64,000 bases of DNA from assembly GCA_951406725.2 (NCBI GenBank), contig OX597814.1, forward strand, positions 206,646,001 to 206,710,000. Direction: 5' to 3'. The notes under the pieces were generated by a model. It saw only the letters and a list, made by a program, of their open reading frames with translations. It had not been told where the DNA came from and made no database searches. Below, piece by piece: positions 8,498-58,603 of the stretch; positions within the stretch are counted from its first letter, which is position 1; each line of letters starts with the position of its first letter. The translations under genes and the position numbers were made by a program. This DNA is from Octopus vulgaris. Lineage: Eukaryota.

Positions 8498-8725
8498 GTT
8501 GATGTCATCGTTAACAGCACCAATGAAGAACTCCAGCTTAACTGTGGTGCTATCTCCAAATCTATTCTCAATGCTGCTGGTCCACAGATACAAGATGAAT
8601 GTAACCAGAAATTTCGTCGAAGTATTTCTACATCTGAAATTGCCATCACTAAAGGATATAAGCTCAACTGTAAGAATGTATTTCATCTGGTATTACCTTA
8701 CTGGAATGAATATCATTCTGATTCA
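8498..8725 (+). CDS. Macrodomain module exon C, copy 1 (N-terminal half of PARP14/BAL-type macrodomain)
   Basis: Acceptor ttttgtAG, donor GTAAGT, 228 nt, phase 0->0. Reads VDVIVNSTNEELQLNCGAISKSILNAAGPQIQDECNQKFRRSISTSEIAITKGYKLNCKNVFHLVLPYWNEYHSDS, matching the DVIVNS..L.L..G.vSk.il..AG..lq.EC..T.G..L.CK.V.H macrodomain pattern. Confidence 0.93.
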
Positions 8726-9335
8726 GTAAGTATCAATCATATTATATTGATTTATTGAAAGAGTTAATGTTTGAAGGGAACCTTATGCATGTTGTGTGAG
8801 AATCATAAAGCAAATGTCAGCATCCTGTTTAATATTTGTTCTTCCAAGTTATCATTGGAAGGAAGCAGAAGATATCGATGAACAGGACACTTTTATATAT
8901 AAATAGAAGGAAAAAAGCCTCATGGCCTAACAACAGTTATGCGACTGATAAATAAGACTATATTAAAACATATTTCTCTGTTTTACTGTCTGTATTGGTG
9001 AGTTTTTCTCTGTCATGGCACGAGCACTAGAGAGGTTGTCATGTCCTCAACAACACTAAAGACTCCTCTTGGGTCTGCATTCTCTCTCTTCATTCACCAA
9101 CCATTTTACACGGTGGATGGGGTCTGTTTAATTGTAGCAGCATCATGAGTGAGGTTGCCTTGTCTCTTGCAGGACTAAAGAGTGATAGGAATGACAGTTG
9201 TGTTTAGAAGTGGTAGGAGTGAGAGGAGTTGTGAGAGGAGGATATATTTATTACAACTTAATGGTTTCTTCCTGTAATTGGAAAATAATTTAATAAAATG
9301 TTCATTATCAATTACTAAACAATTATTTTTTTTAG

Positions 9336-9563
9336 ATTCTGGCAAACATGACTCGAATAATAACCACTTGTCTGGAAAATGCTGAGAGAATGGGAGCAAA
9401 AAGCCTGGCATTTCCTATATTAGGGGCTGAAATGAAATACCCCATTGGAAAACTACCCAGAACAATGTATGAAGCAGTGAAAAACTACTCAGATCAAAAT
9501 TCAAGCCAGATCAAAGATGTTTACTTTGTGGTTTTACCTGAAGAAGACAGAGAAATAGCAAAG
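9336..9563 (+). CDS. Macrodomain module exon D, copy 1 (C-terminal half of macrodomain)
   Basis: Acceptor ttttttAG, donor GTTGGT, 228 nt, phase 0->0. Reads ILANMTRIITTCLENAERMGAKSLAFPILGAEMKYPIGKLPRTMYEAVKNYSDQNSSQIKDVYFVVLPEEDREIAK, with the CL..A....kSiAFP.lG...v.fv macrodomain motifs. Confidence 0.93.
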
Positions 9564-9659
9564 GTTGGTTGATGTTTTTGTTGTTTGTTGTTTGATGTTG
9601 ATATTTTTGGAATTTACCAAAAGCATATTCTGCAAAAAATGAAGAAAATAGAAACAAGA

Positions 9660-10110
9660 ATCTGGAATCATTTTATAAATTTCCCCGCATGACATCCATA
9701 TGCCTTCTGTCCTGGCAAGCTTACTTGGTCTCATCACCACTGTAGCACATTTTGAGAGTCCAAACTCCATCTTGATATCATTCACAAAAATCTGCACAGA
9801 CTGGATTAAGCTGTCCAGTTCTGTCTCACTATTTGTTAACAATTTTGAGTCATTCCTGAATGCCTGCTGGTAAAGTTTTCGCTTACCTCTTCCCACATCA
9901 AACCCCAACTTTGTCTTCTGCTGTATTTCACTTAAGGGGTTTTATTCACAGTGAAAAAAAATCAGTGGAGACACACTGTTCCCCTGGAAGAGTCCTCTGT
10001 TGATATCCACCTCTGCCAGTACTTTTCATACTCTTCCATATAAAGCTTTTCATGTGTTTTGCTACTCCGTATATTTCTTTAGTTCTTGCTGTCCAAGATT
10101 ATGTTATCAA
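9660..10110 (-). mobile_element. Non-LTR RT fragment, R4/Dong-like (homologs ~26625-27075, ~41142-41595, ~59540-59995)
   Basis: DSKLLTNSETELDSLIQSVQIFVNDIKMEFGLSKCATVVMR resembles the post-YxDD region of RLE-clade RTs. Confidence 0.7.
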
Positions 10111-10141
10111 TCATTATTATTATTGTTGTTGTTGTAGTTGA

Positions 10142-11953
10142 TGTTGTGTGAGAGTAGAGTGCCCCCTGGCGAGAATGGACTGGGCCACTATATATAAAAA
10201 AGTAGTAGTGGTCTGATTAAGCGTGGAAGTTCGGATTGGAGGGCAATTCATGCTAGTTCTACAGTTCATAAGTTGATAGTCAAAGCTGGAGTTGAAAGTT
10301 TACAGTTCGAGTTAGCATGTTGGTTTGTTGGTTGTTAAAGGATTGTTGTTATGTTCTGCGTGGATACTGCCAGTTTTTCATTACACTGTTGCAGTGTATT
10401 TGTTTATCCATGAGGATAAACATATCTGGCAACAAGGATTGTTTGAAACTTCACAGGAAATAGCTTCAAGAGAAGCAACAGCAACAACCACAAGAGCTGC
10501 AAAAACAAATACTACAACATCAACAACAGTAATTGAGTTTTACAGTCAGTGAAGTCCGCAAGTCCAGTAAGATTGTTTATGCCAGATGGCACGGCTAACA
10601 CAATTTCTAAATTTACGTATAATCCAGAGGAGAATATTATGTCTCCCGTGTATTATAGAAGATATGAGGAAATTTTTAACAATGAGTGCAAGTCACGGTC
10701 GGAGGAGGAGTAAGGCTTTCACTACACAAGGTAGCTCCTGCCAAACATGAGCAGTACTGTAACTTTATTCTGCCCAGAAAGTTGAGTGAGATTGATTTCC
10801 AAGATGGCGTGGAATTGTTTTCAAAATTTTGTTTGTAAAAGTTCATTGTTGAGCGCTTTAATGGAGTAGTCAGCCATACGTGTGAAAATTTCAAACTTCA
10901 GCATCTCACTCAGGATATGTTCAAATCACTTACCTTCATGTAAGGACTTATAGCACTTGAAGACATTCAGGCAAGGATTCTCTTGAAAATGGAGCAAGCA
11001 AACCAGGATTCATCTCTACAGACCCTCACTGAAGAACGTCAGACTATAGTAAATGATGTGAAAATAATGGCGGATAAAGACTCTGCAAAACTTCAAATGT
11101 GTTGCCCTGGAAAGCAGAATCCAAAAAGTATCAGGCCCCAAACTGTGTTATGGTTATGGAGGCCTACACTACAAAAAGGATTGTCCTTTTAAAAACAAAA
11201 AGTGCTATAGTTGTCATAAGCTGGGACACAGGAGTTCTCATTGCAGAACAAGACTGCAAGGCTCAAATACAAAAAGTTCTAAGGTGTTTTCAGCAGAGAT
11301 CGATTGTGATGGAGAAACAAGAAAATTCGTGCATGTAAAGATAAATGATGTGAATACCAAATTACAGTTAGACTCAGGTAGTGACATCTTCATTATAAAT
11401 GCAGATACTAGGGAAAAATTAGTAAACCGAGATTACGCAAAGCAGCGAAAATAGCATGTGGTGTAACGGGCGACAAATTACATTTGATGGACAAAACATG
11501 TATCGACATCACATTTCGAGGAGAGACACGTGAAGCAAAATTATTCGTCTGTTTGGTACAGATTGGCTAGAACTATTCAATTTATGGTACCTCCCTGTAA
11601 ATCTTTACTGCAATAAAATAAATGGTTGTCATGTTAAAAACAAGTCTACAGAAGAAGTGAAGGAAAAATTGGAAAAAAAATGTTCCTGCAAGTGTTATTT
11701 AAAAGAGTGTTAAGAGAAGCAGTAAATGAATCAAAATGTCATTAACTGCGGTTGACCGGTGTGTTTGTTCTTCCTGTTTTGTCATCCATTTTGTGGGGGA
11801 AGGGCAGCTCAACTGAATATATTTTTCTGTCAAAAGTTGTTTGCATTTTCCCCGTCACCATTGGAGAAAGCCCAACAGAACATGGTGAGGCCTATATGTG
11901 AAAGAGGGGGAGAGATCGAGGCTCAAATACAAAATGCTTTAGGTTCTGTCTAA
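10142..11953 (+). mobile_element. Ty3/Gypsy LTR retrotransposon relic with ~2 kb internal pol deletion, U1
   Basis: Putative 5' LTR from TG at 10142 with TATA-like motif. Degenerate PBS-like tggcaacaaggat at 10427. CCHC knuckle CYSCHKLGHRSSHC and protease LDSGSD. Joins directly to the integrase end. Confidence 0.82.
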
Positions 11954-13454
11954 TGACATACACATAAATACATTCTTATATATTTATGATGATGATGATG
12001 ATGATATTTCAGTAACAGCTTTTGAAAAAATACAATAAAAGTAACGAGAACAGAATGCAACCTCTTCATCACCATCATCTCCATCACCACCACCACCACC
12101 ACCCGTGTGCGATAGAATTTGTGGAGTTAGATATTCTATGGCTTGACGCCTTTCCTGTCACCAACCCTCACCTCGTTCTAAGGGAGGTAACTATTTCTGC
12201 ATTTTAAAGAACTTCACAAAATATTAGAAACAAAGGACACTGCTTGCATAACAGGGACACTCATTTACAGCTAACAAATAATGTAAAGGCAAGGAGACAC
12301 ACTCACATATGTATGAATGGCGTCTCTCATTTACTGCCTACCAGACCCAATCACCGATCTTTGATTGGCCTAAGGCTATAGTTAAAGACACTTGCTCAAG
12401 GTGCCATACATTGAGACTGAACCTAAATCAAGGTAATTAAAAGTAATAGCAACAGAAGCAGTATTAATACCAAAAGCAATCTTTATATCCAACTAAATGT
12501 GGATGTTGTGTTAGAACATCAAGTACTACCTTATTTACCTTGAGAGGACCTCTCATATGGACGTACGGTCCATAAATGCATGCAAATTTATATTGTTGGT
12601 AGACAACAATCATCTTCTAAAGGCAACAGAACTGCCAGATCATGTATTTTCGCTCTGCTCAGGTTCATCAGTGACAGACGCCCTGTAGCAACATAACAGC
12701 GAAATCTCCCTGTCAACGATATATAGACAGTGATGTCACAAATAGCCTGAAGGCTTATTAAAGATAATTAATAGCAACAGAAGCAGTTTTAATACCAAAA
12801 GGCATTCTTTATGTCCATATGCTGTAATGAAGAAATTAGGGAAATTCCTGTCCACTGTAGAACCTGTTTGTGAAGTTCTTTCTTTTTGAATCTTTTCCCT
12901 TTTCCTTTGTCATCTCTCTTATGAATGACCATGATCCTAATTGTTGGACCTCCTCCACCTCCTCCTTCTTGCTTATAATATCAACAAATAATTACCTTGT
13001 ACTCTGCTTTTGTTGCTCAAATATTCTTGGGTACACAAGATGCACCAAAGAACCTCAACTTCAACATTCTTGATAGACATTTCAACAGCAAACACAAGAC
13101 TCAGCAGTTTTAATCAGAATGGTGAGTGGAGAGAAGAAACAATACAACTTCAGCTACATGAAGACACCATTGCCACATGTTTAACTTCACTAACACCACA
13201 TCAGTGGTCACAGTGGAAGGTTTTTCTGCCACATCCACTATAATACCATGTCTCCCAGTAGACTGGAAGGTCGTGGATGGAATATCTTTGATCTGAGTGA
13301 CAAAGTAATTTTCCTCATTTCCTTATTACTGATTAGAAAGAAATCAATAAATATTTCAAATATTTTGTTTGTCTTTTGTTAAATTGAATCTCTTCTCTTT
13401 AAAAAAAGCAAAAAAATTAAACAAAAATGATTCTCATGGTTTTGAATTTTACAG

Positions 13455-13536
13455 AAATTTGAGGAATATCTCCAAAATAAAGATGAAAATGAAGGAATGA
13501 TGGATAAACAGGAAAAGGAAGGATTTCATTCAAAAG
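13455..13536 (+). CDS. Macrodomain module exon E, copy 1 (terminal helix plus charged linker)
   Basis: Acceptor ttttacAG, donor GTAAAC, 82 nt, phase 0->1. Reads KFEEYLQNKDENEGMMDKQEKEGFHSK+G, which completes the macrodomain last helix and matches the phase of the next exon B. Confidence 0.82.
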
Positions 13537-13643
13537 GTAAACAATTTGTTTGTTGATATTGAATATTATGGTGTTTTGTCATACCGTCTCTATTAAACAC
13601 TGTTTATTATAAATATGATTAATGTTATTATCATTATTATCAT

Positions 13644-14020
13644 TCTGTGCCGGTGGCACGTAAAAAGCACCACCCGACTGTGGCCGTTGCCAGCACCGCC
13701 CCAACTGGCCTCCGTGCTGGTGGCACATAAAAAGCACCATCCGATCTTGGCCGTTGCCAGCCTTGCCTGGCCACCGTGCCGGTGAACTTAAAAAGCACCA
13801 TCCGTCCATGGCCGTTTGCCAGCCCCGTCTGGCACCTGTCCCGGTGGCACGTAAAAAGCACCCACTACTCTCCTGGAGTGGTTGGCGTTAGGAAGGGCAT
13901 CCAGCCATAGAAACACTGCCAGATCAGACTGGGCCTGGTGCAGCCTTCTGGATTCCCAGACCCCAGTTGAACGGTCCAACCCATGCTAGCTTGGAAAGCG
14001 GACACTAAATAATGATGATG
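13644..14020 (+). mobile_element. SINE-like element with internal ggtggcacgtaaaaagcacc subrepeats and an RTE-type 3' tail, U1
   Basis: Tail gagtggttggcgttaggaagggcatccagcc...ccaacccatgctagc...aaagcggac-(GAT)n. Minus-strand relics of the same tail at ~3240-3370 and ~15520-15830. Confidence 0.7.
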
Positions 14021-14047
14021 ATTATTATTAATTATTAATGATTAATG

Positions 14048-14094
<47 letters not shown>

Positions 14095-14099
14095 TATTA

Positions 14100-14990
14100 T
14101 TATGATTGCTATTATTGTTATAGATGTGGCACAGTATACAATATCGTGAGATTGTTGATCGAAGATATTGTGTCTACTGGGGGTTTGCAGTGTTTGTCAA
14201 GTCACAAGAAGGACCTCAGGCAGACAATACTTTACACAATTCCAAGTAATGCTGACTTTTGCAATACATCTAGATTGCGGAGTATCTCTAAGGACTTCAG
14301 ATGTTTTTTTCAGTTTGGATCGTATTGAACCCAATACTCCGATGACAATAGGGATAACCTTTATGTTTGACTCTTGTACCTGCCACATCTTAGCAATCTC
14401 AATTCTCAGGTTTCCATATTTATCAACCTTTTTCTCTTTATTTCATGATGATGTGTTGATCTCCTGGCCCTGCCAAATCGATTATTTGGCACTTTTGTTT
14501 GTCCCTTCTAAAGGTTTCTATATCTGGCCTTCAGTTCTCTAACACTTTGTCTGTCTGGAAATCAAAGTCCCAGAGGATTTTTGCCTTCCCCTTTTCGTTC
14601 ATTACTTTTTTGGTGTATGTTGGTACCAAGCACCCATAACCTCATATCCATACTTATGGCATAGTAGCCAGTGGAGGTTTTCGGCTACTTTGTCGTGTCT
14701 ACGCTTGAACTCTTCCTGCGCAAGACTTTCTCAAGCACTACTTTCGGCCCTCTTCCCACACATTCTGCAGAGATCCGTTGCACTTGTGTGGTATATATTC
14801 TTTTCCACTGAGTCCTGGGCCCAAATGATTAGGCTTTCAGTATTTTTGATTAGGTCACCCTTGTTGCGCCACCTCTATGATGCTTCTTTGTCTTTTAATT
14901 TGTTGGTTCCACAGTGGAACTGACCATGTAATTCCATACGGAGTAGGGTTTCTTCTCTCTCGTCGGCTGTTCGTGATCAGAATTCATGTT
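14100..14990 (-). mobile_element. Older R4/Dong-like family 2 fragment, U1 (homologs ~32085-32990 and ~48880-49760)
   Basis: U2 copy reads RRHDKVAQNLHWLLC..KILWDFDFQTDKVLEHKRPDI..IIDLAVP and U1 reads KVIPIVIGVLG. Abuts (TAA)n. Confidence 0.8.
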
Positions 14991-15885
14991 TACCCTCAAG
15001 TTCCTGTGCTATCAGAATAGTAGCAGTTGTAGTATTTGTAGTATTAGCAGCTGCAGTATCTTATCATTATTTTTCTTTTTATCATTGTCACCATCACCAC
15101 CACTACAACTCTGCATGTTTCTAGTAATCCCCTATGTCAGTACAAATCTGATTTATCCTCAACTATTGAGATTTCGGATTTGATCAAATTTAGCATAACA
15201 GTCACAGAAGTGCAAGAATTTAATTAAACAATCTGGCAATCCTTCCCAAGCAAAATTACGTCATTTTAGTTTTCCCACATGTGTAGCCTTTAGGGGCCAT
15301 TCTGGTAATTGTTTGGGCTAAAAAACAAAGTCTTAAAAGCAACAACAACTTCAACAATAGTGCATGTGAGGCCTAGGAAAGCGATTTTGCCTTGCTTCTG
15401 TCATCCCGTTTCACCATCACAGGAACAAAAGAAATTAATGAGAAAAAGTGACAACAACAGCAAGAAAACAGCTGCCATGCTGGTGGCAGCTGCAGCAGGT
15501 TTGCCAGTACCACTGCCAACATCATCATCATCATCGTTTAACATCTGTTTTCTAAGCATGCATGGATTGGACAGTTGACAGGAGCCGGCAAGGTGGAAAA
15601 TAACTACCCTTCGCTACTGTGTCTGTTTTGGCAGGAATTTTACAGCTGGATGCACTTCCTAACACCAACCACTCAGCAGAGTGGACTCAGTACATTTTAC
15701 GTGGAACTAGCACAACAAAGTTAGTTTTGGCATTATTTTTGCAGTTGCCCTTCCAAATGCCCTTCCAAATGCAAGCCATTTCACAATGTGCAGTGGATGC
15801 TTTTTACATGGCACCAGTGCTGGCAGGGTCACCAAGATAATGAATTATGAGAGGGGCAAGGCATTTGATGAGGAGAGCTTGTGTC

Positions 15886-18800
15886 AGATGATGAAAGGTT
15901 AGAGTGTGACAGAGAGACAGAAAGAGGGGTCTTGCCATAACAGAGAGGGCATTGGAGGTGGTGATCCAGTAGTAGATGATGAAATGTTAGAGTGTGACAG
16001 AGAGACAGAAAGAGGGGTCTTGCCATAACAGAGAGGGCATTGGAGGAGGTGATCCAGTAGTAGATGATGAAATGTTAGAGTGTGACAGAGAGACAGAAAG
16101 AGGGGTCTTGCCATAACAGAGAGGGCATTGGAGGAGGTGATCCAGTAGTAGATGATGAAAGGTTGAGTGTGACAGAGAGACAGAAAGAGGGGTCTTGCCA
16201 TAACAGAGAGGGCATTGGAGGAGGTGATCCAGTAGTAGATGATGAAATGTTAGAGTGTGACAGAGAGACAGAAAGAGGGGTCTTGCCATAACAGAGAGGG
16301 CATTGGAGGAGGTGATCCAGTAGTAGATGATGAAATGTTAGAGTGTGACAGAGAGACAGAAAGAGGGGTCTTGCCATAACAGAGAGGGCATTGGAGGAGG
16401 TGATCCAGTAGTAGATGATGAAAGGTTAGAGTGTGACAGAGAGACAGAAAGAGGTGTCTTGCCATAACAGAGAGGGCATTGGAGGAGGTGATCCAGTAGT
16501 AGATGATGAAATGTTAGAGTGTGACAGAGAGACAGAAAGAGGGGTCTTGCCATAACAGAGAAGGCATTGGAGGAGGTGATCCAGTTGTAGATGATGAAAT
16601 GTTAGAGTGTGACAGAGAGACAGAAAGAGGGGTCTTGCCATAACAGAGAGGGCATTGGAGGTGGTGATCCAGTAGTAGATGATGAAATGTTAGAGTGTGA
16701 CAGAGAGACAGAAAGAGGGGTCTTGCCATTACAGAGAGGGCATTGGAGGAGGTGATCCAGTAGTAGATGATGAAATGTTAGAGTGTGACAGAGAGACAGA
16801 AAGAGGGGTCTTGCCATAGCAGAGAGGGCATTGGAGGAGGTGATCCAGTAGTAGATGATGAAATGTTAGAGTGTGACAGAGAGACAGAAAGAGGGGTCTT
16901 GCCATAACAGAGAGGGCATTGGAGGAGGTGATCCAGTAGTAGATGATGAAATGTTAGAGTGTGACAGAGAGACAGAAAGAGGGGTCTTGCCATAACAGAG
17001 AGGGCATTGGAGGTGGTGATCCAGTAGTAGATGATGAAATGTTAGAGTGTGACAGAGAGACAGAAAGAGGGGTCTTGCCATAGCAGAGAGGGCATTGGAG
17101 GAGGTGATCCAGTAGTAGATGATGAAATGTTAGAGTGTGACAGAGAGACAGAAAGAGGGGTCTTGCCATAACAGAGAGGGCATTGGAGGTGGTGATCCAG
17201 TAGTAGATGATGAAATGTTAGAGTGTGACAGAGAGACAGAAAGAGGGTCTTGCCATAACAGAGAGGGCATTGGAGGTGGTGATCCAGTAGTAGATGATGA
17301 AATGTTAGAGTGTGACAGAGAGACAGAAAGAGGGGTCTTGCCATAACAGAGAGGGCATTGGAGGAGGTGATCCAGTAGTAGATGATGAAATGTTAGAGTG
17401 GGACAGAGAGACAGAAAGAGGGGTCTTGCCATAACAGAGAGGGCATTGGAGGAGGTGATCCAGTAGTAGATGATGAAATGTTAGAGTGTGACAGAGAGAC
17501 AGAAAGAGGGGTCTTGCCATAACAGAGAGGGCATTGGAGGAGGTGATCCAGTTGTAGATGATGAAATGTTAGAGTGTGACAGAGAGACGGAAAGAGGGGT
17601 CTTTCCATAACAGAGAGGGCATTGGAGGTGGTGATCCAGTAGTAGATGATGAAATGTTAGAGTGTGACAGAGAGACAGAAAGAGGGGTCTTTCCATAACA
17701 GAGAGGTCATTGGAGGTGGTGATCTAGTAGTAGATGATGAAATGTTAGAGTGTGACAGAGAGACAGAAAGAGGGGTCTTGCCATAGCAGAGAGGGCATTG
17801 GAGGAGGTGATCCAGTAGTAGATGATGAAATGTTAGAGTGTGACAGAGAGACAGAAAGAGGCGTCTTGCCATAACAGAGAGGGCATTGGAGGTGGTGATT
17901 CAGTAGTAGATGATGAAATGTTAGAGTGTGACAGAGAGACAGAAAGAGGGGTCTTGCCATAGCAGAGAGGGCATTGGAGGAGGTGATCCAGTAGTAGATG
18001 ATGAAATGTTAGAGTGTGTCAGAGAGACAGAAAGAGGGGTCTTGCCATAACAGAGAGGGCATTGGAGGTGGTGATCCAGTAGTAGATGATGAAATGTTAG
18101 AGTGTGACAGAGAGACAGAAAGAGGGTCTTGCCATAACAGAGAGGGCATTGGAGGTGGTGATCCAGTAGTAGATGATGAAATGTTAGAGTGTGACAGAGA
18201 GACAGAAAGAGGGGTCTTGCCATAACAGAGAGGGCATTGGAGGTGGTGATCCAGTAGTAGATGATGAAATGTTAGAGTGTGACAGAGAGACAGAAAGAGG
18301 GGTCTTGCCATAACAGAGAGGGCATTGGAGGTGGTGATCCAGTAGTAGATGATGAAATGTTAGAGTGTGACAGAGAGACAGAAAGAGGGGTCTTGCCATA
18401 ACAGAGAGGGCATTGGAGGTGGTGATCCAGTAGTAGATGATGAAATGTTAGAGTGTGACAGAGAGACAGAAAGAGGGGTCTTGCCATAACAGAGAGGGCA
18501 TTGGAGGAGGTGATCCAGTAGTAGATGATGAAATGTTAGAGTGTGACAGAGAGACAGAAAGAGGGGTCTTGCCATAACAGAGAGGGCATTGGAGGAGGTG
18601 ATCCAGTAGTAGATGATGAAATGTTAGAGTGTGACAGAGAGACAGAAAGAGGGGTCTTGCCATAACAGAGAGGGCATTGGAGGAGGTGATCCAGTTGTAG
18701 ATGATGAAATGTTAGAGTGTGACAGAGAGACAGAAAGAGGGGTCTTGCCATAACAGAGAGGGCATTGGAGGTGGTGATCCAGTAGTAGATGATGAAATGT

Positions 18801-20396
18801 TAGAGTGTGACAGAGAGACAGAAAGAGGGGTCTTGCCATAACAGAGAGGTCATTGGAGGTGGTGATCCAGTAGTAGATGATGAAATGTTAGAGTGTGACA
18901 GAGAGACAGAAAGAGGGGTCTTGCCATAGCAGAGAGGGCATTGGAGGAGGTGATCCAGTAGTAGATGATGAAATGTTAGAGTGTGACAGAGAGACAGAAA
19001 GAGGGGTCTTGCCATAACAGAGAGGGCATTGGAGGTGGTGATCCAGTAGTAGATGATGAAATGTTAGAGTGTGACAGAGAGACAGAAAGAGGGGTCTTGC
19101 CATAACAGAGAGGGCATTGGAGGTGGTGATCCAGTAGTAGATGATGAAATGTTAGAGTGTGACAGAGAGACAGAAAGAGGGTCTTGCCATAACAGAGAGG
19201 GCATTGGAGGTGGTGATCCAGTAGTAGATGATGAAATGTTAGAGTGTGACAGAGAGACAGAAAGAGGGGTCTTGCCATAACAGAGAGGGCATTGGAGGAG
19301 GTGATCCAGTAGTAGATGATGAAATGTTAGAGTGTGACAGAGAGACAGAAAGAGGGGTCTTGCCATAACAGAGAGGGCATTGGAGGAGGTGATCCAGTAG
19401 TAGATGATGAAATGTTAGAGTGTGACAGAGAGACAGAAAGAGGGGTCTTGCCATAACAGAGAGGGCATTGGAGGAGGTGATCCAGTTGTAGATGATGAAA
19501 TGTTAGAGTGTGACAGAGAGACAGAAAGAGGGGTCTTGCCATAACAGAGAGGGCATTGGAGGTGGTGATCCAGTAGTAGATGATGAAATGTTAGAGTGTG
19601 ACAGAGAGACAGAAAGAGGGGTCTTGCCATAACAGAGAGGTCATTGGAGGTGGTGATCCAGTAGTAGATGATGAAATGTTAGAGTGTGACAGAGAGACAG
19701 AAAGAGGGTCTTGCCATAGCAGAGAGGGCATTGGAGGAGGTGATCCAGTAGTAGATGATGAAATGTTAGAGTGTGACAGAGAGACAGAAAGAGGCGTCTT
19801 GCCATAACAGAGAGGGCATTGGAGGTGGTGATCCAGTAGTAGATGATGAAATGTTAGAGTGTGACAGAGAGACAGAAAGAGGGTCTTGCCATAACAGAGA
19901 GGGCATTGGAGGTGGTGATCCAGTAGTAGATGATGAAATGTTAGAGTGTGACAGAGAGACAGAAAGAGGGGTCTTGCCATAACAGAGAGGGCATTGGAGG
20001 TGGTGATCCAGTAGTAGATGATGAAATGTTAGAGTGTGACAGAGAGACAGAAAGAGGGGTCTTGCCATAACAGAGAGGGCATTGGAGGTGGTGATCCAGT
20101 AGTAGATGATGAAATGTTAGAGTGTGACAGAGAGACAGAAAGAGGGGTCTTGCCATAACAGAGAGGGCATTGGAGGTGGTGATCCAGTAGTAGATGATGA
20201 AATGTTAGAGTGTGACAGAGAGACAGAAAGAGGGTCTTGCCATAACAGAGAGGGCATTGGAGGTGGTGATCCAGTAGTAGATGATGAAATGTTAGAGTGT
20301 GACAGAGAGACAGAAAGAGGGGTCTTGCCATAGCAGAGAGGGCATTGGAGGAGGTGATCCAGTAGTAGATGATGAAATGTTAGAGTGTGACGGAGA
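15886..20396. repeat. 88-bp intronic satellite array, ~51 copies
   Basis: Same monomer, including some 87-bp variants. Confidence 0.97.
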
Positions 20397-22787: not shown

Positions 22788-22900
22788 GAACCAAACCATC
22801 AGACCTTCTTAGTCCACAACAGGAATCGTCCTCTATGACACCCGGAACTAAAGTGACATCCAGAAAATATGATGGCATCAAAATAAAACTAATGATTTAG
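22788..22900 (+). pseudogene. Exon A, copy 2
   Basis: Same acceptor, frame and TAG as copy 1. Confidence 0.7.
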
Positions 22901-22976
22901 TCAATTTGGCCTATGTGCACCCCAGACTGGTAAAGCGTTAAGTGTATGGTTGGCTGGTTTTTGGTTACTGTTGCTC

Positions 22977-23041
<65 letters not shown>

Positions 23042-25068: not shown

Positions 25069-25205
25069 ACACCACATCATCAAACACATCTCTTCCTGGC
25101 TCGCAAAAGGAAATCTCTTCTGTGGCACCCAGAACTAATGAGACATCCAGAGAAAATGATGGCATCAAAATACAACTATTGATTGATTCAATTTCTAATG
25201 CATCT
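25069..25205 (+). CDS. Macrodomain module exon B, copy 2
   Basis: AG/GTGAGT intact. Reads (D)TTSSNTSLPGSQKEISSVAPRTNETSRENDGIKIQLLIDSISNAS. Confidence 0.85.
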
Positions 25206-25486: not shown

Positions 25487-25714
25487 GTTGATGTCATCGT
25501 TAACAGCACAAATAAAAGCCTCCAGCTTAACAGTGGTGCTGTCTCCAAATCTATTCTCAATGCTGCTGGTCCACAGATACAAAATGAATGCAACGAGGAA
25601 TATTCTCGAGGTATTTCTACATCTGAAATTGCCGTCACTAAAGGATATAAGCTCAACTGTAAGAATGTATTTCATCTGGCATTACCTTACTGGGATGAAT
25701 ATTCCTCTGATTCA
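25487..25714 (+). CDS. Macrodomain module exon C, copy 2
   Basis: AG/GTAAGT intact. Reads VDVIVNSTNKSLQLNSGAVSKSILNAAGPQIQNECNEEYSRGISTSEIAVTKGYKLNCKNVFHLALPYWDEYSSDS. Confidence 0.93.
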
Positions 25715-26324: not shown

Positions 26325-26552
26325 ATTCTGGCAAACTTGACTCGAATAATAACCACTTGTCTGGAAACTGCTGAGAGAATGGGAGCAAAAAGCCTGGCAT
26401 TTCCTATATTAGGGGCTGAAATGAAATACCCCATTGGAAAACTACCCAGAACAATGTCTGAAGCAGTGAAAAACTATTCAGATCAAAATTCAAGCCGGAT
26501 CAAAGATGTTTACTTTGCGGTTTTACCTGAAGAAGACAGAGAAATAGCAAAG
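26325..26552 (+). CDS. Macrodomain module exon D, copy 2
   Basis: AG/GTTGGT intact. Reads ILANLTRIITTCLETAERMGAKSLAFPILGAEMKYPIGKLPRTMSEAVKNYSDQNSSRIKDVYFAVLPEEDREIAK. Confidence 0.93.
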
Positions 26553-30407: not shown

Positions 30408-30489
30408 AAATTTGAAGAATATCTCCAAAATAAAGACGAAAATGAAGGAATGATGGATAAACAGGAAAAGGAAAGATTTCATTCAAAAG
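30408..30489 (+). CDS. Macrodomain module exon E, copy 2
   Basis: ttttgcAG/GTAAAC. Reads KFEEYLQNKDENEGMMDKQEKERFHSK+G. Confidence 0.82.
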
Positions 30490-37202: not shown

Positions 37203-37315
37203 GAACCAAACCATCAGACCTTCTTAGTCCTCAACAGGAATCGTCCTCTATGACACCCAGAACTAAAGTGACATCCAGAAAATATGATGGCATCAAAATA
37301 AAACTAATGATTTAG
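37203..37315 (+). pseudogene. Exon A, copy 3
   Basis: Same AG acceptor, frame and TAG as copy 1. Confidence 0.7.
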
Positions 37316-37390
37316 TCAATTTGGCCTATGTGCACCCCAGACTGGTAAAGCGTTAAGTGTATGGTTGGCTGGTTTTTGAAGTTACTGTTG

Positions 37391-39561: not shown

Positions 39562-39698
39562 ACACCACATCATCAAACACATCTCTTCATGTTTCGCAAA
39601 AGGAAATCTCTTCTGTGGCACCCAGAACTAATGAGACACCCAGAGAAAATGATGGCATCAAAATACAACTATTGATTGATTCAATTTCTAATGCAACT
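39562..39698 (+). CDS. Macrodomain module exon B, copy 3
   Basis: AG/GTGAGT intact. Reads (D)TTSSNTSLHVSQKEISSVAPRTNETPRENDGIKIQLLIDSISNAT. Confidence 0.85.
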
Positions 39699-39979: not shown

Positions 39980-40207
39980 GTTGATGTCATCATTAACAGA
40001 ACCAATAAAAACCTCTACCTTAACATTGGTGCTATCTCCAAATCTATTCTCAATGCTGCTGGTCCACAGATACAATATGAATGTAACCAGAAATATCCTC
40101 GAGCTATTTCTACATCTACAATAGCCATTACTAAAGGATATAACCTCAACTGTAAGAATGTATTTCATCTGGTATTACCTTACTGGAATGTATATTCTTC
40201 TGATTCA
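39980..40207 (+). CDS. Macrodomain module exon C, copy 3
   Basis: AG/GTAAGT intact. Reads VDVIINRTNKNLYLNIGAISKSILNAAGPQIQYECNQKYPRAISTSTIAITKGYNLNCKNVFHLVLPYWNVYSSDS. Confidence 0.93.
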
Positions 40208-40817: not shown

Positions 40818-41045
40818 ATTCTGGCAAACTTGACCCGAATAATAACCACTTGTCTGGAAACTGCTGAGAGAATGGGAGCAAAAAGCCTGGCATTTCCTAT
40901 ATTAGGGGCTGAAATGAAATACCCCATTGGAAAACTACCCAGAACAATGTATGAAGCAGTGAAAAACTACTCAGATCAAAATTCAAGCCAGATCAAAGAT
41001 GTTTACTTTGTGGTTTTACCTGAAGAAGACAGAGAAATAGCAAAG
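40818..41045 (+). CDS. Macrodomain module exon D, copy 3
   Basis: AG/GTTGGT intact. Reads ILANLTRIITTCLETAERMGAKSLAFPILGAEMKYPIGKLPRTMYEAVKNYSDQNSSQIKDVYFVVLPEEDREIAK. Confidence 0.93.
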
Positions 41046-46988: not shown

Positions 46989-47070
46989 AAATTTGAAGAA
47001 TATCTCCAAAATAAAGACGAAAATGAAGGAATGATGGATAAACAGGAAAAGGAAAGATTTCATTCAAAAG
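46989..47070 (+). CDS. Macrodomain module exon E, copy 3
   Basis: ttttacAG/GTAAAC. Reads KFEEYLQNKDENEGMMDKQEKERFHSK+G. Confidence 0.82.
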
Positions 47071-47223
47071 GTAAACAATTTGTTAGTTGATATTGAATAT
47101 TATGGTGTTTTGTCATACCGTCTCTATTAAACACTGTTTATTATAAATATGATTAATGTTATTATCATTGTTATTATTATTATTATTAATGTTATTATTA
47201 TTATTATTATTATTATTATCATT

Positions 47224-47254
<31 letters not shown>

Positions 47255-47328
47255 TCATTATTATTATTATTAATTATTAATTATTATCATTATTATTATT
47301 CTGATTATTATTACTATTATTATTATTA

Positions 47329-48257: not shown

Positions 48258-48342
48258 TGCATATTATGGTGTTTTGTCATACCGTCTCTATTAAACACTG
48301 TTTATTATAAATATGATTAATGTTAATATCATTATTATCATT

Positions 48343-48806
48343 CTGTGCCGGTGGCACATAAAAAGCACCACCCGACTGTGGCTGTGGCCAGCACCACCCG
48401 ACTGTGGCCGTGGCCAGCACCACCCGACTGGCCTCTGTGCTGGTGGCACGTAAAAAGCACAATCCGATCGTGGCTGTTGCCAGCTTCACCTGGTCCCCGT
48501 GCCGGTGGACGTAAGAAGCACCATCCGTCCATGACCGTTTGCCAGCCCCGTCTGGCATCTGTCCCGGTGCTACATAAAAAGCACCATCCGATCGTGGCCG
48601 TTGCCAGCCACGTCTGGCACCTGTGCCGGTGGCACGTAAAAAGCACCCACTACACTCACGGAGTGGTTGGCGTTAGGAAGGGCATCCAGCCATAGATACA
48701 CTGCCAGATCAGACTGCGCCTGGTGCAGCCTTCTGGCTTCCCAGACCCCAGTTGAACGGTCCAACCCATGCTAGCATGGAAAGCGGACACTAAATAATGA
48801 TGATGA
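48343..48806 (+). mobile_element. Same SINE-like element, U3 (more subrepeats); absent in U2
   Basis: Homologous to 13644-14020. Confidence 0.7.
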
Positions 48807-48832
48807 TTATTATTAATTATTAATGATTAATG

Positions 48833-48870
<38 letters not shown>

Positions 48871-50705: not shown

Positions 50706-53638
50706 AGATGATGAAAGGTTAGAGTGTGACAGAGAGACAGAAAGAGGGGTCTTGCCATAGCAGAGAGGGCATTGGAGGAGGTGATCCAGTAGTAGATGAT
50801 GAAATGTTAGAGTGTGACAGAGAGACAGAAAGAGGGGTCTTGCCATAACAGAGAGGGCATTGGAGGTGGTGATCCAGTAGTAGATGATGAAAGGTTAGAG
50901 TGTGACAGAGAGACAGAAAGAGGGGTCTTGCCATAACAGAGAGGGCATTGGAGGAGGTGATCCAGTAGTAGATGATGAAAGGTTAGAGTGTGACAGAGAG
51001 ACAGAAAGAGGGGTCTTGCCATAGCAGAGAGGGCATTGGAGGAGGTGATCCAGTAGTAGATGATGAAATGTTAGAGTGTGACAGCGAGACAGAAAGAGGG
51101 GTCTTGCCATAACAGAGAGGGCATTGGAGGAGGTGATCCAGTAGTAAATGATGAAATGTTAGAGTGTGACAGAGAGACAGAAAGAGGGGTCTTGCCATAA
51201 CAGAGAGGGCATTGGAGGTGGTGATCTAGTAGTAGATGATGAAAGGTTAGAGTGTGACAGAGAGACAGAAAGAGGGGTCTTGCCATAACAGAGAGGGCAT
51301 TGGAGGAGGTGATCCAGTAGTAGATGATGAAATGTTAGAGTGTGACAGAGAGGCAGAAAGAGGGGTCTTGCCATAACAGAGAGGGCATTAGAGGTGGTGA
51401 TCCAGTAGTAGATGATGAAATGTTAGAGTGTGACAGAGAGACAGAAAGAGGGGTCTTGCCATAACAGAGAGGGCATTGGAGGAGGTGATCCAGTAGTAGA
51501 TGATGAAATGTTAGAGTGTGACAGAGAGACAGAAAGAGGGGTCTTGCCATAACAGAGAGGGCATTGGAGGTGGTGATCCAGTAGTAGATGATGAAAGGTT
51601 AGAGTGTGACAGAGAGACAGAAAGAGGGGTCTTGCCATAACAGAGAGGGCATTGGAGGAGGTGATCCAGTAGTAGATGATGAAATGTTAGAGTGTGACAG
51701 AGAGACAGAAAGAGGGGTCTTGCCATAACAGAGAGGGCATTGGAGGTGGTGATCCAGTAGTAGATGATGAAATGTTAGAGTGTGACAGAAAGACAGAAAG
51801 AGGGGTCTTGCCATAACAGAGAGGGCATAGGAGGTGGTGATCCAGTAGTAGATGATGAAAGGTTAGAGTGTGACAGAGAAACAGAAAGAGGGGTCTTGCC
51901 ATAGCAGAGAGGGCATTGGAGGAGGTGATCCAGTAGTAGATGATGAAATGTTAGAGTGTGACAGAGAGACAGAAAGAGGGGTCTTGCCATAACAGAGAGG
52001 GCATTGGAGGTGGTGATCCAGTAGTAGATGATGAAAGGTTAGAGTGTGACAGAGAGACAGAAAGAGGGGTCTTGCCATAACAGAGAGGGCATTGGAGGAG
52101 GTGATCCAGTAGTAGATGATGAAATGTTAGAGTGTGACAGAGAGGCAGAAAGAGGGGTCTTGCCATAACAGAGAGGGCATAGGAGGTGGTGATCCAGTAG
52201 TAGATGATGAAATGTTAGAGTGTGACAGAGAGACAGAAAGAGGGGTCTTGCATAACAGAGAGGGCATTGGAGGAGGTGATCCAGTAGTAGATGATGAAAT
52301 GTTAGAGTGTGACAGAGAGACAGAAAGAGGGGTCTTGCCATAACAGAGAGGGCATTGGAGGTGGTGATCCAGTAGTAGATGATGAAAGGTTAGAGTGTGA
52401 CAGAGAGACAGAAAGAGGGGTCTTGCCATAACAGAGAGGGCATTGGAGGAGGTGATCCAGTAGTAGATGATGAAATGTTAGAGTGTGACAGAGAGACAGA
52501 AAGAGGGGTCTTGCCATAACAGAGAGGGCATTGGAGGTGGTGATCCAGTAGTAGATGATGAAATGTTAGAGTGTGACAGAAAGACAGAAAGAGGGGTCTT
52601 GCCATAACAGAGAGGGCATAGGAGGTGGTGATCCAGTAGTAGATGATGAAAGGTTAGAGTGTGACAGAGAAACAGAAAGAGGGGTCTTGCCATAGCAGAG
52701 AGGGCATTGGAGGAGGTGATCCAGTAGTAGATGATGAAATGTTAGAGTGTGACAGAGAGACAGAAAGAGGGGTCTTGCCATAACAGAGAGGGCATTGGAG
52801 GTGGTGATCCAGTAGTAGATGATGAAAGGTTAGAGTGTGACAGAGAGACAGAAAGAGGGGTCTTGCCATAACAGAGAGGGCATTGGAGGTGGTGATCTAG
52901 TAGTAGATGATGAAATGTTAGAGTGTGACAGAGAGACAGAAAGAGGGGTCTTGCCATAACAGAGAGGGCATTGGAGGAGGTGATCTAGTAGTAGATGATG
53001 AAATGTTAGAGTGTGACAGAGAGACAGAAAGAGGGGTCTTGCCATAACAGAGAGGGCATTGGAGGTGGTGATCTAGTAGTAGATGATGAAAGGTTAGAGT
53101 GTGACAGAGAGACAGAAAGAGGGGTCTTTCCATAACAGAGAGGGCATTGGAGGAGGTGATCCAGTAGTAGATGATGAAATGTTAGAGTGTGACAGAGAGG
53201 CAGAAAGAGGGGTCTTGCCATAACAGAGAGGGCATTGGAGGAGGTGATCCAGTAGTAGATGATGAAATGTTAGAGTGTGACAGAGAGACAGAAAGAGGGA
53301 TCTTGCCATAACAGAGAGGGCATTGGAGGAGGTGATCCAGTAGCAGATGATGAAATGTTAGAGTGTGACAGAGAGACAGAAAGAGGGGTCTTGCCATAAC
53401 AGAGAGGGCATTGGAGGTGGTGATCCAGTAGTAGATGATGAAATGTTAGAGTGTGACAGAGAGACATAAAGAGGGGTCTTGCCATAACAGAGAGGGCATT
53501 GGAGGTGGTGATCCAGTAGTAGATGATGAAATGTTAGAGTGTGACAGAGAGACAGAAAGAGGGGTCTTGCCATAGCAGAGAGGGCATTGGAGGAGGTGAT
53601 CCAGTAGTAGATGATGAAATGTTAGAGTGTGACGGAGA
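50706..53638. repeat. 88-bp intronic satellite array, ~33 copies
   Basis: Same monomer. Confidence 0.97.
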
Positions 53639-56055
53639 AATAAAGAAGCAGAGAGAGATGTCTTGCTATAGAGGAGAGACATGGTTACCGAGGGACAGAG
53701 AAAGAGGTACGCAAAAGAGGCCATAAATTGGTGTGCTGGTGTGAAGGAGGTATTTGGTTACCTAGGCAGAGGAAAAACAAGAGGAGAGAGAGAGAGAGAA
53801 AATGAGGAAGAATGAGACATGCAAATCTAGTCGTAACAATTTCAACTTTGCAAGAGTAACCACAGAATTAAGTGAAGACATTTTTTATCGATGGAAATTT
53901 ATTCAAGAATGCAAAATGTAGCAGAAAAATGGTATTAAACATTCATAGAACTGGCCCCGCAAAAAATTAATTTGTGGACAGTTCTATATAAAACAACTGA
54001 AGTCAAAAGTAGGGAAGTGGAGCAGGCAACACAGCAGCAAATAGAGAAATACCTAGAAGCAGTTTAGAAAAGCAAAGCCTACGTAGCCAGGTTAAAGAAA
54101 GAAATATGGGACTGTCAAAGTGCGTTCTGTCTCAGAGGAGGAGACCAAAAATAACTGGATGGCCATCCTAGCAAGGGACAAACACATTGTCATCCCCATC
54201 TACTTTGGTCGAAGAATATTCAGAGTTAGAATACTCAACATAATGCCAACCATTTTAGAGTGTGGACTGGAAGCTGCTTTTCTCATGGCACCAGCACTGG
54301 TGAGGTTACCAAGTATCTTGCAAGCCCCCTGATGGAACTGGGGAGTGGGGAGGTGGCTTGAGGCCAGGGCTAGAAAGTCTAAAGTTTGCCAGAGGCTTAA
54401 GCACATAGATCTAGAGGAGACTCGTGGCGTCCTTATATTTATGCAAAGGTGCATGACAGTATCTGGAAGGAAGAAAGATGGTGGTAATAGAGTGCCAGGG
54501 CATAGTCCCAAATTACAAGAAGGGGAGTATAAGGGAGACTGTGGATGAGTAAAGAAGGAATGGGAGGGTAATGGCATCAGAGTGTGAGATGAAAAGTGCA
54601 GAGGTTAGAGATGGGGCTTGAGGTGGTTGTAGAGAGTGAGAAACAATGGTTTGAGGTGGAGTCGCGAGACTGACGGGGCTCGGAAAGGAGGAGGTGACAA
54701 GAAGCCTCAGAGGAAGGGTAGAGAGCAGCAGAATCATCAATCTGTTGATAGATGAGGAGGAAGAGAGATGAAGACCAGGATCTGACAGCAGAGGGAAAGC
54801 AAAGATGATGAAGTGTGAAAGAGATAGGAGTCAGAGATACATGGGGGTGGCTATAGTGAGTGGGGCCAGAAAATTGGAGGGAGTATTAGCAATGACTGTG
54901 AGAGGGTGTTGAGAATGATTGCAGATAGGAGAAGTGTTCAACAGGAAACCTGGCAGAGTAAGGTGTAGCTAAGAGGGGTGGGTGGGAAAGATTTGGGAAG
55001 GGACAGAAAGGGATGATCGATGGAAGGTTGTATGGATGGAGATGATGATGAAAGAGATGCAACTGGTATTAATGAAAGGGTGGGGGTGGTGATGAATGCT
55101 CTCAAATGGTTACAGCAGTAAAGTAGGACCATAGTTAGAAGAGTATAATAGAGGGATGGGTGTTAGGAAGATGAGATGTGGTGAAGGGGATGCTTCACAG
55201 GGGCAAATGTGGGCGTAAGGCCCCGCATGGACAGGAATATATATCACAGTTTTTGGACATGACTTTTGCTGTGACAAATGTGTCTTTATATATCATTTTG
55301 TTCAACTTGTGCCAGCATGGACATGAAATGTAGATGGGGATAATGCTGATGATGGCATGCCTATACGTATGTACATCATGATCATCATCATTTAGCATCC
55401 ATTGTCCATGCTGGCATGGGTTGGACGGTTTGACTGGGGCTGGCAAGGTGAGGGGCTACACCATCTCCAGTCTGACATGGTATGGTTTCTACAGCTGGAT
55501 ACCTTTCCTAACCACCAATGTAATGGCTGCTTTTATTTACCACCAGCATGGATGCTAGATACATGATGCCAGCATCAACCACATGGCCTCTATGAGGCAC
55601 AACCCCCAAATGGTACATTTTACGTGAGACTGGCATGGCTGGCAGGTAGGTGACACCTACAAAGACCACAGCTATGATTTCATTCGGCTTGATATGTCTT
55701 CTCAAGTATGACATATCGCCAAATGTCTCGGTCACTATAGTCATTGCTTCCATGTGGCCCATCATTTGATGATTATGCTTAAGCACCTCATTCCATATCT
55801 TCCTGGGCCTCCCTCTTCTACAGCTTCCTCCCACTGGTAGAGATTGGAACTTCTTCAGATGTCGTGTGCGGTTGTCTCTCTTGTACACCACATCTGATGG
55901 TTCTTATGCCCAGCTAAGATATATATATATAAATTGTCAATATAACATATATCAGAATGAGAAGCACACCCTAAAGAATAGAGCAGACTTTATGATTGAA
56001 AATGTGTATGTTTGTGTGTGTGTATGTATGTATGTTTATATTTGTTTATTTTCAG

Positions 56056-56168
56056 GAACCAAACCATCAGACCTTCTTAGTCCACAACAGGAATCGTCCT
56101 CTATGACACCCGGAACTAAAGTGACATCCAGAAAATATGATGGCATCAAAATAAAACTAATGATTTAG
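56056..56168 (+). pseudogene. Exon A, copy 4
   Basis: Same acceptor, frame and TAG as copy 1. Confidence 0.7.
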
Positions 56169-56246
56169 TCAATTTGGCCTATGTGCACCCCAGACTGGTA
56201 AAGCGTTAAGTGTATGGTTGGCTGGTTTTTGAAGTTACTGTTGCTC

Positions 56247-56311
<65 letters not shown>

Positions 56312-56312
<1 letters not shown>

Positions 56313-57758
56313 TGTTGTGTCTGGGGAGAGTCATTTTCTTTTTGTGCCTTATAATTTTACACACTCACCGGTGAAATATCCGCTTAATGTAGAAACTGAG
56401 AAGAACATAATGGAGAGCCTCCAGCAAATAGCTAACTCCATCCACCAAAGTATCAAGGTAACTATAGATTAACCCCCACTAAGCACCCCAACAATGGACT
56501 CCTTGTACTTGATACTGAACTTGGGTTAGAGACTGTGAACAAAAGAGTGCAGCTCCTCCACTCTTATTACATGGAACCCATAACTTCAAACTATGTCGTT
56601 CACAAGAACTCACCTTTCTCACACAACATGGAAATTAAACCATACTGATAGCAGACTTAATTAGAATAATGAACAATGTGTCCCCACTATGCGAACCCTA
56701 TGAAACGACAAAACATATACAGAACTTCATGCACCGCATGCAGTTCTCTGGATATGATCAAAAAGATAGGGTTCGAGTATACAGGGGTGCTAGAAATAAA
56801 TCTGATAACATTATACGTAATGATACCAGTGGTACCTGCCCTAGATATAGAAACAAAGAATGGAATAGGATACAAAGAACTTGTGACAAAGCAAACAGGG
56901 TGAACACATGGTATAAAAGTGAGAAATATCAAGGAGTGATGTTTGTAGAGGCCAAATCCCATGGAGAACTAGCCTGTAGATTTAGGGAAGCTCTGAAGGA
57001 GACCAAACTTGACATTAAGATTGTTGAAAAGCCAGGGAACTCCGTCAGATCATAACTATGTAGGACGTACCCCTTTAAGAATACCATATGCACCAATGAT
57101 AACTGCTTGATATGTAGGATTAGCCCTGGCATTAACTGTAGAACTCGAAATGTAGTTTACAGCATATGATGCTTAGAAAGTGCTTGTAAAGACATGAACA
57201 TGACGTACGTAGGGGAGACATCTAGGAGCATAGCTGAAAGACTAAATGAACATTTGAGACTATATGACAACAAAAAGCAGTCCTCCATACTCTACCAACA
57301 TCCCAATGACCGCCATAGAGGTAACTTGGGTCAACTTGACATCCGCATCTCATCCAAGATATCAAAAGACCCAACACTCAGACAAATACGGGAGTACGTC
57401 CTTATAAATGAAACTTTCCTAATACTAAATAGGAAATATACATGGTAGATACCATACCCCCATACCCACAGTTTACACAGGTAGAGTAGAATAGTTAGTG
57501 GGCTGTTATGTAGATAGATGTATGTATGTGTGTGTGGGTACACACACACATGCATGCATAGACACACACACACACTGACCCACACACATGCGCACAAACA
57601 AACAAAAAATAATGGACAGAGTCAACACTTTTGAAAATTTTGCAAGATGCAATGAAAATTTGAACAAAATAAAAAGGAGAAATAAGTGGAAATTTTTGGC
57701 AGTGAGTGTGTTAAATTATAAGGCACGAAAAGAAAATGACTCTCCCCAGACACAACAG
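56312..57758 (+). mobile_element. Degenerate Penelope-like element, U4 copy (CA-rich tail shortened)
   Basis: Homologous ORFs 56669-57055 and 57194-57448. Confidence 0.85.
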
Positions 57759-57880
57759 AATATGCTTCAACACACAAACTCACATAAAGAATCTTGCAAA
57801 CCAAATCCAAAAATGAAATACATATACGGACGTTAAATGATGATGATGATGATGATGATATATATCTTTGTGAGTGTGTG

Positions 57881-57920
<40 letters not shown>

Positions 57921-57957
57921 AAGTGTACATATGTTGATATTTGTTTATTTTTTTCAG

Positions 57958-58094
57958 ACACCACATCATCAAACACATCTCTTCCTGGCTCGCAAAAGGA
58001 AACCTCTTCTGTGGCACCCAGACCTAATGAGACACCCAGAGAAAATGATGGCATCAAAATACAACTATTGATTGATTCAATTTCTAATGCATCT
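57958..58094 (+). CDS. Macrodomain module exon B, copy 4
   Basis: AG/GTGAGT intact. Protein identical to copy 1. Confidence 0.85.
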
Positions 58095-58375
58095 GTGAGT
58101 AAATAGATTCACTTAACATATTTACGTTTAATTGTTATTTCATTTCCAAATGAGGAATCATTAAAGTTAATTAAAACATTTTCTCAATCGAACTCAAACA
58201 TTTTATTTCCTTCACATCTGATATCTTGAGTATATCTTTTGCTAACTTTAACAACCTCAAACTTACTACAGCCATTCTGTAGAGCCTTTCTTAACAACAA
58301 TATCAACTTCAACAATGTATCTCTTTTCTCTCCATGGAATGTTCCTTTGCTGTTTACCATTAATTACTTTTGTAG

Positions 58376-58603
58376 GTTGATGTCATCGTTAACAGCACCA
58401 ATAAAAACCTCCAGCTTAACAATGGTTCTATCTCCAAATCTATTCTCAATGCTGCAGGTCCACATATACAAAATGAATGTAACGAGGAATATCCTCGAGG
58501 TATTTCTACATCTACAATAGCCATTACTAAAGGATATAACCTCAAATGTAAGAATGTATTTCATCTGGTATTACCTTCCTGGTATGAATATTCCTCTGAT
58601 TCA
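58376..58603 (+). CDS. Macrodomain module exon C, copy 4
   Basis: AG/GTAAGT intact. Reads VDVIVNSTNKNLQLNNGSISKSILNAAGPHIQNECNEEYPRGISTSTIAITKGYNLKCKNVFHLVLPSWYEYSSDS. Confidence 0.93.

Follow-up and report, generated by a model that had tools for sequence, protein, structure and literature searches.

The window analysed here is a stretch of 64,000 nt from Octopus vulgaris (contig OX597814.1, positions 206,646,001 to 206,710,000 of the forward strand) and contains four units of 15-18 kb, with a mutual identity of about 95-97%, that carry the exons (B, C, D and E) of a macrodomain. Sequence beyond the window was also examined (+50 kb upstream and +150 kb downstream, 264 kb in all) and gave the order of a single gene: a large N-terminal exon with NAANGRLEHRGG at its end, two further exons of a first macrodomain (MD1), seven units with the layout B-C-D(-E) (U0-U6), then a linker exon and finally three exons of an ADP-ribosyltransferase (ART). 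The window covers U1-U4, with the large N-terminal exon, MD1 and unit 0 upstream of it and exon E of unit 4, units 5-6 and the ART exons downstream. All four copies belong to one octopus macro-PARP gene, in which they are spliced as repeats; the gene is composed of MD1, at least seven repeats of the MD2 type and an ART, and exon C of these repeats is very probably under genuine diversifying selection. The features of the array are as follows, in window coordinates:

8079..8215, + strand, unit 1 exon B, linker and first strands of the MD2-type macrodomain (splice 8215 to 8498, GT..AG, in 4/4 RNA-like contig runs; the upstream partner is exon E)
8498..8725, + strand, unit 1 exon C, the hypervariable half, which comprises beta3, loop 1, the helices and the beta5 loop (Pfam Macro, E=3e-13)
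9336..9563, + strand, unit 1 exon D, shortened loop 2 (LGA-EMKYP; C to D junction in contig loose ends)
13455..13536, + strand, unit 1 exon E, C-terminal helix and linker (D to E and E to B junction letters in contig loose ends)
25069..25205, + strand, unit 2 exon B
25487..25714, + strand, unit 2 exon C
26325..26552, + strand, unit 2 exon D, short loop 2
30408..30489, + strand, unit 2 exon E
39562..39698, + strand, unit 3 exon B
39980..40207, + strand, unit 3 exon C
40818..41045, + strand, unit 3 exon D, short loop 2
46989..47070, + strand, unit 3 exon E
57958..58094, + strand, unit 4 exon B
58376..58603, + strand, unit 4 exon C
59215..59442, + strand, unit 4 exon D, short loop 2
3910-4050 (+ strand), 22789-22929, 37204-37344 and 56057-56197, exon B relic, about 80% identical, with an in-frame stop (duplicated with the units and skipped by the E to B splice)

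All four exon C copies are flanked by AG and GT, open in phase 0 and free of stops, and their translations matched Pfam Macro. Splicing was read from contig runs that we guess to be RNA. The B to C junction was present in 4/4 of these runs, together with the letters of the C to D, D to E and E to B junctions, and therefore the 225-codon units are spliced in frame into one open reading frame (ORF) that bypasses the stop-carrying exon B relic. Placement of the macrodomains and the PARP catalytic domain within this ORF was supported by the exon order, the repeat junctions, a Pfam PARP match on the last exon and the O. sinensis model P0001; models from that species combine MD1, 4-5 repeats and PARP within a single protein. 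Database isoforms of the O. sinensis gene (P0001, P0003-P0006) skip entire repeats or exon D, reflecting either true splicing or mis-mapping among near-identical repeats. Two features bear on the completeness of the array: a 100-N gap about 6.5 kb upstream of the window, after U0 and with an exon E copy on either side, may conceal additional units, and one extra A in exon B of unit 6 (L008:5662-5800) shifts the frame ahead of the last repeat and the ART, being either an assembly error or a true break.

The closest named proteins were PARP14/15-like proteins of Octopus. PARP14 MD2 was the best PDB sequence match of one O. sinensis repeat (E=3e-22), for which an AlphaFold (AF2) model presented a per-residue confidence score (pLDDT) of 95.5 and a TM of 0.93 to 3Q71, and the remaining array units are near-identical to this repeat. 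The ART carries WHGT, YFA and NIYVTF, corresponding to an H-Y-hydrophobic triad with no catalytic Glu. Such a triad marks a mono-ADP-ribosyltransferase, and the domain is predicted to act as a mono-ADP-ribosyl writer. MD1 presents the hydrolase signature by the criteria of PMC10221186, namely NAANGRLEHRGG (NAAN...G) and a loop 2 of STG followed by IYG with its hydrophobic and aromatic residues, and would thus be an eraser. No MD3-type exon was found in the 264 kb by tblastn, WWE was absent from the Pfam results for P0001, and the interval between unit 6 and the ART yielded only the short linker exon. The large upstream exon gave 0 Pfam matches; its paralog P0010 (91% identical there) has RRMs further N-terminal.

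The initial annotation had described exon C as hypervariable at the amino-acid level relative to its flanks, and recounting bore this out. C1 and C2 differ at 21 nt, which produce 14 amino-acid changes and 2 purely synonymous codons (8 and 35), while the next 230 nt of intron differ at 4 positions between C1 and C2 and at 2-4 across all six pairs. Over the four copies 24/76 residues of exon C are variable, compared with 7 in exon D and 1 (G/R) in the three in-window copies of exon E, and all multi-state sites of exon C listed earlier were correct on recheck. The exon-versus-intron divergence scan proposed at that stage was also run, and exon C emerged as a peak (38/228 variable columns vs 255/5731 intron columns; Fisher p=1e-11, four copies), with the most variable 228-column intron window holding 24 variable columns. 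Upstream, the peak takes in about 60-100 nt of the intron; at its other end it stops abruptly at the 3' splice donor. That such a pattern is an artefact or the product of a mutational process, arising through assembly error or through RNA-editing changes written back via cDNA, is scarcely credible. The near-identical 15-18 kb repeats, the gap, the insertion in unit 6 and the coincidence of the peak's 3' edge with a splice site would fit this explanation, but the peak carries on beyond the exon into the intron upstream, and independent O. sinensis proteins share the motifs, as do the RNA-like contigs. Write-back of RNA editing was rejected as a candidate, with A>G making up just 31/161 changes and C>T being higher per base. 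As an account of the substitutions the artefact is refuted; copy number remains provisional.

A genome-wide search (2.8 Gb) was used to place the array within its family, with all copy counts being lower bounds. It returned at least 51 strong exon C matches among 71 candidates, at least 19 MD1 exons among 72 candidates, and 16 intact ART last exons plus one broken among 21 candidates. Gene copies number about 17, some of them broken, and family members lie nearly all within three clusters on one chromosome. One inverted neighbour macro-PARP (G000:C1:206805236-206850042, minus strand) has an ART last exon interrupted by stops. Exon D of this neighbour is 97% identical to the final P0001 repeat of O. 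sinensis, compared with 87% for exon D of unit 6, a resemblance that suggests exchange between the array gene and this neighbour.

Diversifying selection was assessed on the array units and on a family set of 49 of the 51 exon C copies using our own GY94/MG94 site-model fitter (not PAML), with FastTree branch lengths under one scale, a fixed tree shape and kappa from M0. The likelihood-ratio test (LRT) of M2a against M1a gave 8.6 for U1-4, 15.7 for U1-6, 20.7 for U0-6 and about 129 for the 49 family copies, in which 27% of codons were assigned to an omega (nonsynonymous to synonymous rate ratio) of about 4-4.4 under both M2a and M8, and a second frequency model agreed. Four-gamete-incompatible pairs made up 27-54%, indicating that the copies recombine, and M1a nulls were therefore simulated with recombination and passed through the same pipeline. 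Chi-square p-values (down to 1e-28) were rejected because they are inflated by recombination, and simulation counts were used instead. The observed LRT was reached by none of the recombination nulls for U0-6 (0/54 and 0/58; 0/112), by 3/130 and 1/66 for U1-6 (4/196), and by 0/44 for the 49 family copies, where the null maximum was 94 vs about 128.

The same conclusion was drawn without a tree, as the 32 distinct nonsynonymous alleles at the top five codons were reached by 0/104 simulations matched for synonymous alleles (104 kept from 537). Codons 11, 13, 16 and 68 had a posterior of at least 0.95 in both array and family with site-wise synonymous rates. Single codons reach 8-10 amino-acid states, and codon 68, which is CCC in 26 copies, has zero synonymous variants and nine other amino acids. 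Stops numbered 0 in the 49 copies vs about 6 expected under neutrality. Whole-exon piN/piS (nonsynonymous over synonymous diversity) was 1.24-1.53 in the family, and the signal was present in each third of exon C and in 2 of 3 genomic clusters, with the highest omega in the array's cluster (1.83). Among the controls, exon D gave an omega of 0.55 (44 of 49 units, 5 being without a usable exon D), the last 25 codons of exon B an LRT of 2.8, and the MD1 exon an LRT within its nulls (reached by 2/25 and 12/25; 14/50) together with an M0 omega of 1.06, above all 50 nulls. The selection first proposed from four copies thus holds for the seven units and for the 49 copies, while the four copies alone are borderline.

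Several results weigh against this conclusion. For U1-4 alone, 1/78 and 6/93 nulls (7/171) reached the observed LRT, and the whole-exon piN/piS of 1.5-1.8 has a confidence interval that includes 1. In the family, the tree-free ratio of nonsynonymous to synonymous allele counts over the whole exon was just 0.9-1.1, the 215-216 Mb cluster (7 copies) was without signal (LRT 3.4), and the simulated nulls contain no mutation hot spots. Synonymous diversity was raised as well: exon C piS was 0.05-0.07 in the array, where introns stood at 0.022-0.024 (0.06-0.07 vs 0.024 gives a ratio of about 2.5-3), and 0.08-0.09 in the family, where intron medians were 0.03-0.06 and exon D piS (0.16-0.19; L021-L060) lay far above them, the introns next to exon D having medians of 0.04-0.06. 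For the C-D intron, divergence is given as pairwise medians, the means from a multiple alignment having been discarded as inflated by insertions. Values of piS above intron divergence indicate that age differences between segments contribute. The synonymous excess of exon D in the family is explained only as far as the age of two loop-2 lineages. In addition, 30/49 alleles of U1-6 recur in 42 other copies, and the 19 private alleles (15 nonsynonymous and 4 synonymous) are not clearly above neutral; this recurrence, together with the raised synonymous divergence, points to a contribution of gene conversion. Finally, 7/34 O. sinensis exon C segments are protein-identical to a copy here in a comparison made at the protein level only, suggesting that much of the diversity is old, from before the two species diverged, and is not the product of a race still under way.

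The mosaic of exon C is apparent at several scales. Units 1 and 5 share one and the same middle third, with differences at the ends of the exon, the thirds often have their nearest neighbours outside the array, and 16/29 loop-1 motifs recur in O. sinensis, newly combined. Following these observations, the family could have been diversified by past selection while the array mostly borrows exon C patches of older paralogs through conversion, without current selection. We regard this as improbable, although the shared alleles, the outside neighbours, the raised piS and the motifs common to O. sinensis are all in its favour. Imported patches are retained in exon C only, with introns and exons B, D and E homogeneous, and such retention itself requires selection; the private alleles are mostly nonsynonymous and omega is highest in the array's own cluster. 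The initial annotation had named conversion from an older paralog with proportionate synonymous change as a competing explanation, and this is upheld in part, for piS is raised and alleles are shared, but the omega>1 class stands against the seven-unit and family nulls. A divergence peak under conversion is a predicted signature of selection (PMC2588116), and the allele mosaic fits a peak kept by selection against homogenising conversion. The octopus array shares with this Teshima-Innan signature a local peak of paralog divergence, a nonsynonymous excess, homogenised flanks and presence in a sister species (PMC2588116), and differs from it in having many copies, many states per site and one ORF.

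Fifteen sites were selected in the family (10, 11, 13, 15, 16, 25, 29, 30, 33, 45, 47, 57, 59, 68 and 76). The most variable codons (11, 16 and 68) are on loop 1 and the post-beta5 loop, as the secondary structure of the model places 10-16 in the loop joining the NSTN strand to the helix that follows, and 68 in the one after the exon's last strand. Site 68 presumably neighbours the loop after the NAAN motif. Among 139 distant homologs the residues at the selected positions are polar and vary, with a hydrophobic fraction of 0.13 vs 0.57 at invariant sites, and are thus probably exposed. The loop-1 glycine (G17) was kept in 49/49 copies and aligns to the SRGP glycine of PARP14 MD2, which we take to be G1044, and the strongest exon D site (33) sits in loop 2. 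The NAAN motif and the loop that follows it position the distal ribose and the linked protein (PMC7729036). The earlier assignment of the diversity to the pocket loop therefore survives for codons 10, 11, 13, 15 and 16 (loop 1) and 68 (post-beta5), with about half of the sites lying elsewhere on the probable surface (25, 29, 30, 33, 45, 47, 57, 59 and 76). The primate precedent invoked alongside it is real as regards positive selection, but the selected surfaces of primates are distinct from the ADP-ribose site (PMC4038475).

Loop 2 of U0-U5 is shortened by 3 nt and reads GA-EMKYP, and it has thereby lost a glycine whose conservation across 48 aligned sequences is at least 90%. This short form (GA-EM/KM) was found in 16/44 family units (U0-U5 and 10 others), while loop 2 is intact in unit 6 and in 28/44 family units, and a full loop 2 was seen in O. 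bimaculoides and Argonauta homologs (the O. bimaculoides label deriving from P0042 cluster members). In MacroD2, G188E retains <20% of wild-type ADP-ribose affinity (bioRxiv 10.1101/2021.05.08.443251), and G188 was matched to the lost glycine by manual alignment. Judged by sequence, loss of this glycine means that ADP-ribose binding may be absent from units 0-5, and the glycine-less repeats probably bind ADP-ribose weakly. Every repeat is also without the loop-2 aromatic residue, and the repeats are predicted to be non-catalytic by the criteria of PMC10221186.

The two loop classes differ in exon C omega (2.09 in short-loop units, n=16; 1.10 in full-loop units, n=28), which could reflect relaxed constraint, whereby repeats without ADP-ribose binding drift neutrally and recombination mimics omega>1; recombination alone yields an LRT up to the family null maximum given above. 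This explanation is very improbable and has been largely refuted, as the allele excess was never reached by all-neutral nulls (0/59 kept), 25 codons are without a nonsynonymous allele, stops are lacking, and exon D is conserved in the same units. Full-loop units show the signal as well, both classes carrying an omega>1 class by an uncalibrated LRT (65 for full-loop units). Selection extends to the last ART exon, for which the 16 paralogs gave an omega of 1.29 and an LRT of 51 reached by 0/66 nulls (L012:1513-1764, L061-L075), with selected sites after the YFA motif and before the third triad residue. Reader-type and writer domains therefore diversify together.

Overall, we consider it likely that the diversified repeats form a panel of binding surfaces in one macro-PARP, with selection acting against homogenising conversion. 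Unequal crossover would multiply the units, conversion likely homogenises introns and shuffles repeats, and selection likely keeps the pocket-rim surfaces different between repeats. One writer-eraser enzyme would thereby gain a panel of divergent, non-catalytic recognition repeats, of which those without the glycine may mainly recognise a protein or other ligand at the pocket rim, and the repeats could steer the co-diversifying ART to targets that are likely parasite- or virus-related. On balance we lean towards host-parasite conflict as the driver, by analogy with vertebrate macro-PARPs (PMC4038475; PMC13224862, PMC10499325). A more far-reaching and rather unlikely reading is that the roughly 50 hypervariable macrodomains, of which one in three would have a disabled ADP-ribose pocket, constitute a germline-encoded, conversion-shuffled receptor repertoire serving as an intracellular immune sensor. 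Its macrodomains would bind pathogen proteins directly or decoy pathogen ADP-ribosylation factors, aiming the ART, and repeat-skipping isoforms would add combinations. Conversely, selection may be real with a driver other than infection, if the repeats are specialised on different endogenous partners (ADP-ribosylated or unmodified) or else on products of transposons. This is distinctly improbable. Many orthologous exons are identical in both species, as settled specialisation predicts, and the literature searched gave no infection link, PMC11431876 placing a PARP14-like protein only in the skin mucus of aquarium animals. Against it, the number of states per codon, the multiplication of genes with broken members and the parallel selection on the ART resemble immune gene turnover of the kind known in primate macro-PARPs (PMC4038475).

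In comparison with known systems, vertebrate PARP14 (ARTD8) has the same succession of MD1 hydrolase motifs, an MD2-type domain (that of 3Q71, TM 0.93) and a C-terminal PARP, and it shares the feature of positive selection, which affects both macrodomains as well as the PARP domain (PMC4038475). Vertebrate PARP14, however, has MD2 and MD3, whereas the octopus gene has at least 7 near-identical MD2 repeats with no MD3 or WWE detected, belongs to a set of about 17 paralogs that together hold about 51 MD2 exons, and is part of a family in which the loop-2 glycine is lost in 16/44 units. In the octopus, selection moreover operates between paralogous repeats, and its strongest sites are found at the pocket rim, in contrast to the primate sites, which lie away from the ADP-ribose site. 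PARP15 and PARP9 share tandem macrodomains with an ART, the lack of WWE, and gene birth and loss, but are mammal- or vertebrate-specific partial duplicates (PMC10221186), whereas the octopus gene keeps MD1 and multiplies MD2.

The introns of the array hold further repeats. An 88-bp satellite occurs at 148-1497 (15 copies), 15886-20396 (51) and 50706-53638 (33) with 96-98% matches and is absent between units 2 and 3. Only before unit 1, at 4186-5994, a 532-bp AT-rich element is present in three copies that are 99.7-99.8% identical, after which comes a 135-bp inverted piece. Decayed retroelement-like ORF fragments (6100-7140, 10550-11700, 14150-15000 and copies) were duplicated with the units and by motif presumably resemble Penelope, Ty3/gypsy and LINE elements.

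No account of this expansion or its selection was found in a literature search that did not cover subscription journals and supplements, and the only octopus mention found was the skin-mucus protein noted above. PARP14/15-like labels are already in databases; the loop-2 glycine loss and the selection on the ART are new here. Primate macro-PARPs were already known as fast-evolving, and the literature consulted treats three macrodomains as ancestral. The physiological targets of PARP14 reader domains are still to be established according to PMC13224862, and the array is a natural mutagenesis panel for PARP14 reader specificity beyond ADP-ribose, in which glycine was lost naturally in six of seven repeats at the position where a laboratory Gly>Glu exchange costs MacroD2 most of its affinity. 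The antiviral system of cephalopods is poorly known. A mollusc lineage in which such genes number about 17 and diversified MD2 repeats about 51 points to ADP-ribosylation as a major, expanded axis of cephalopod defence.

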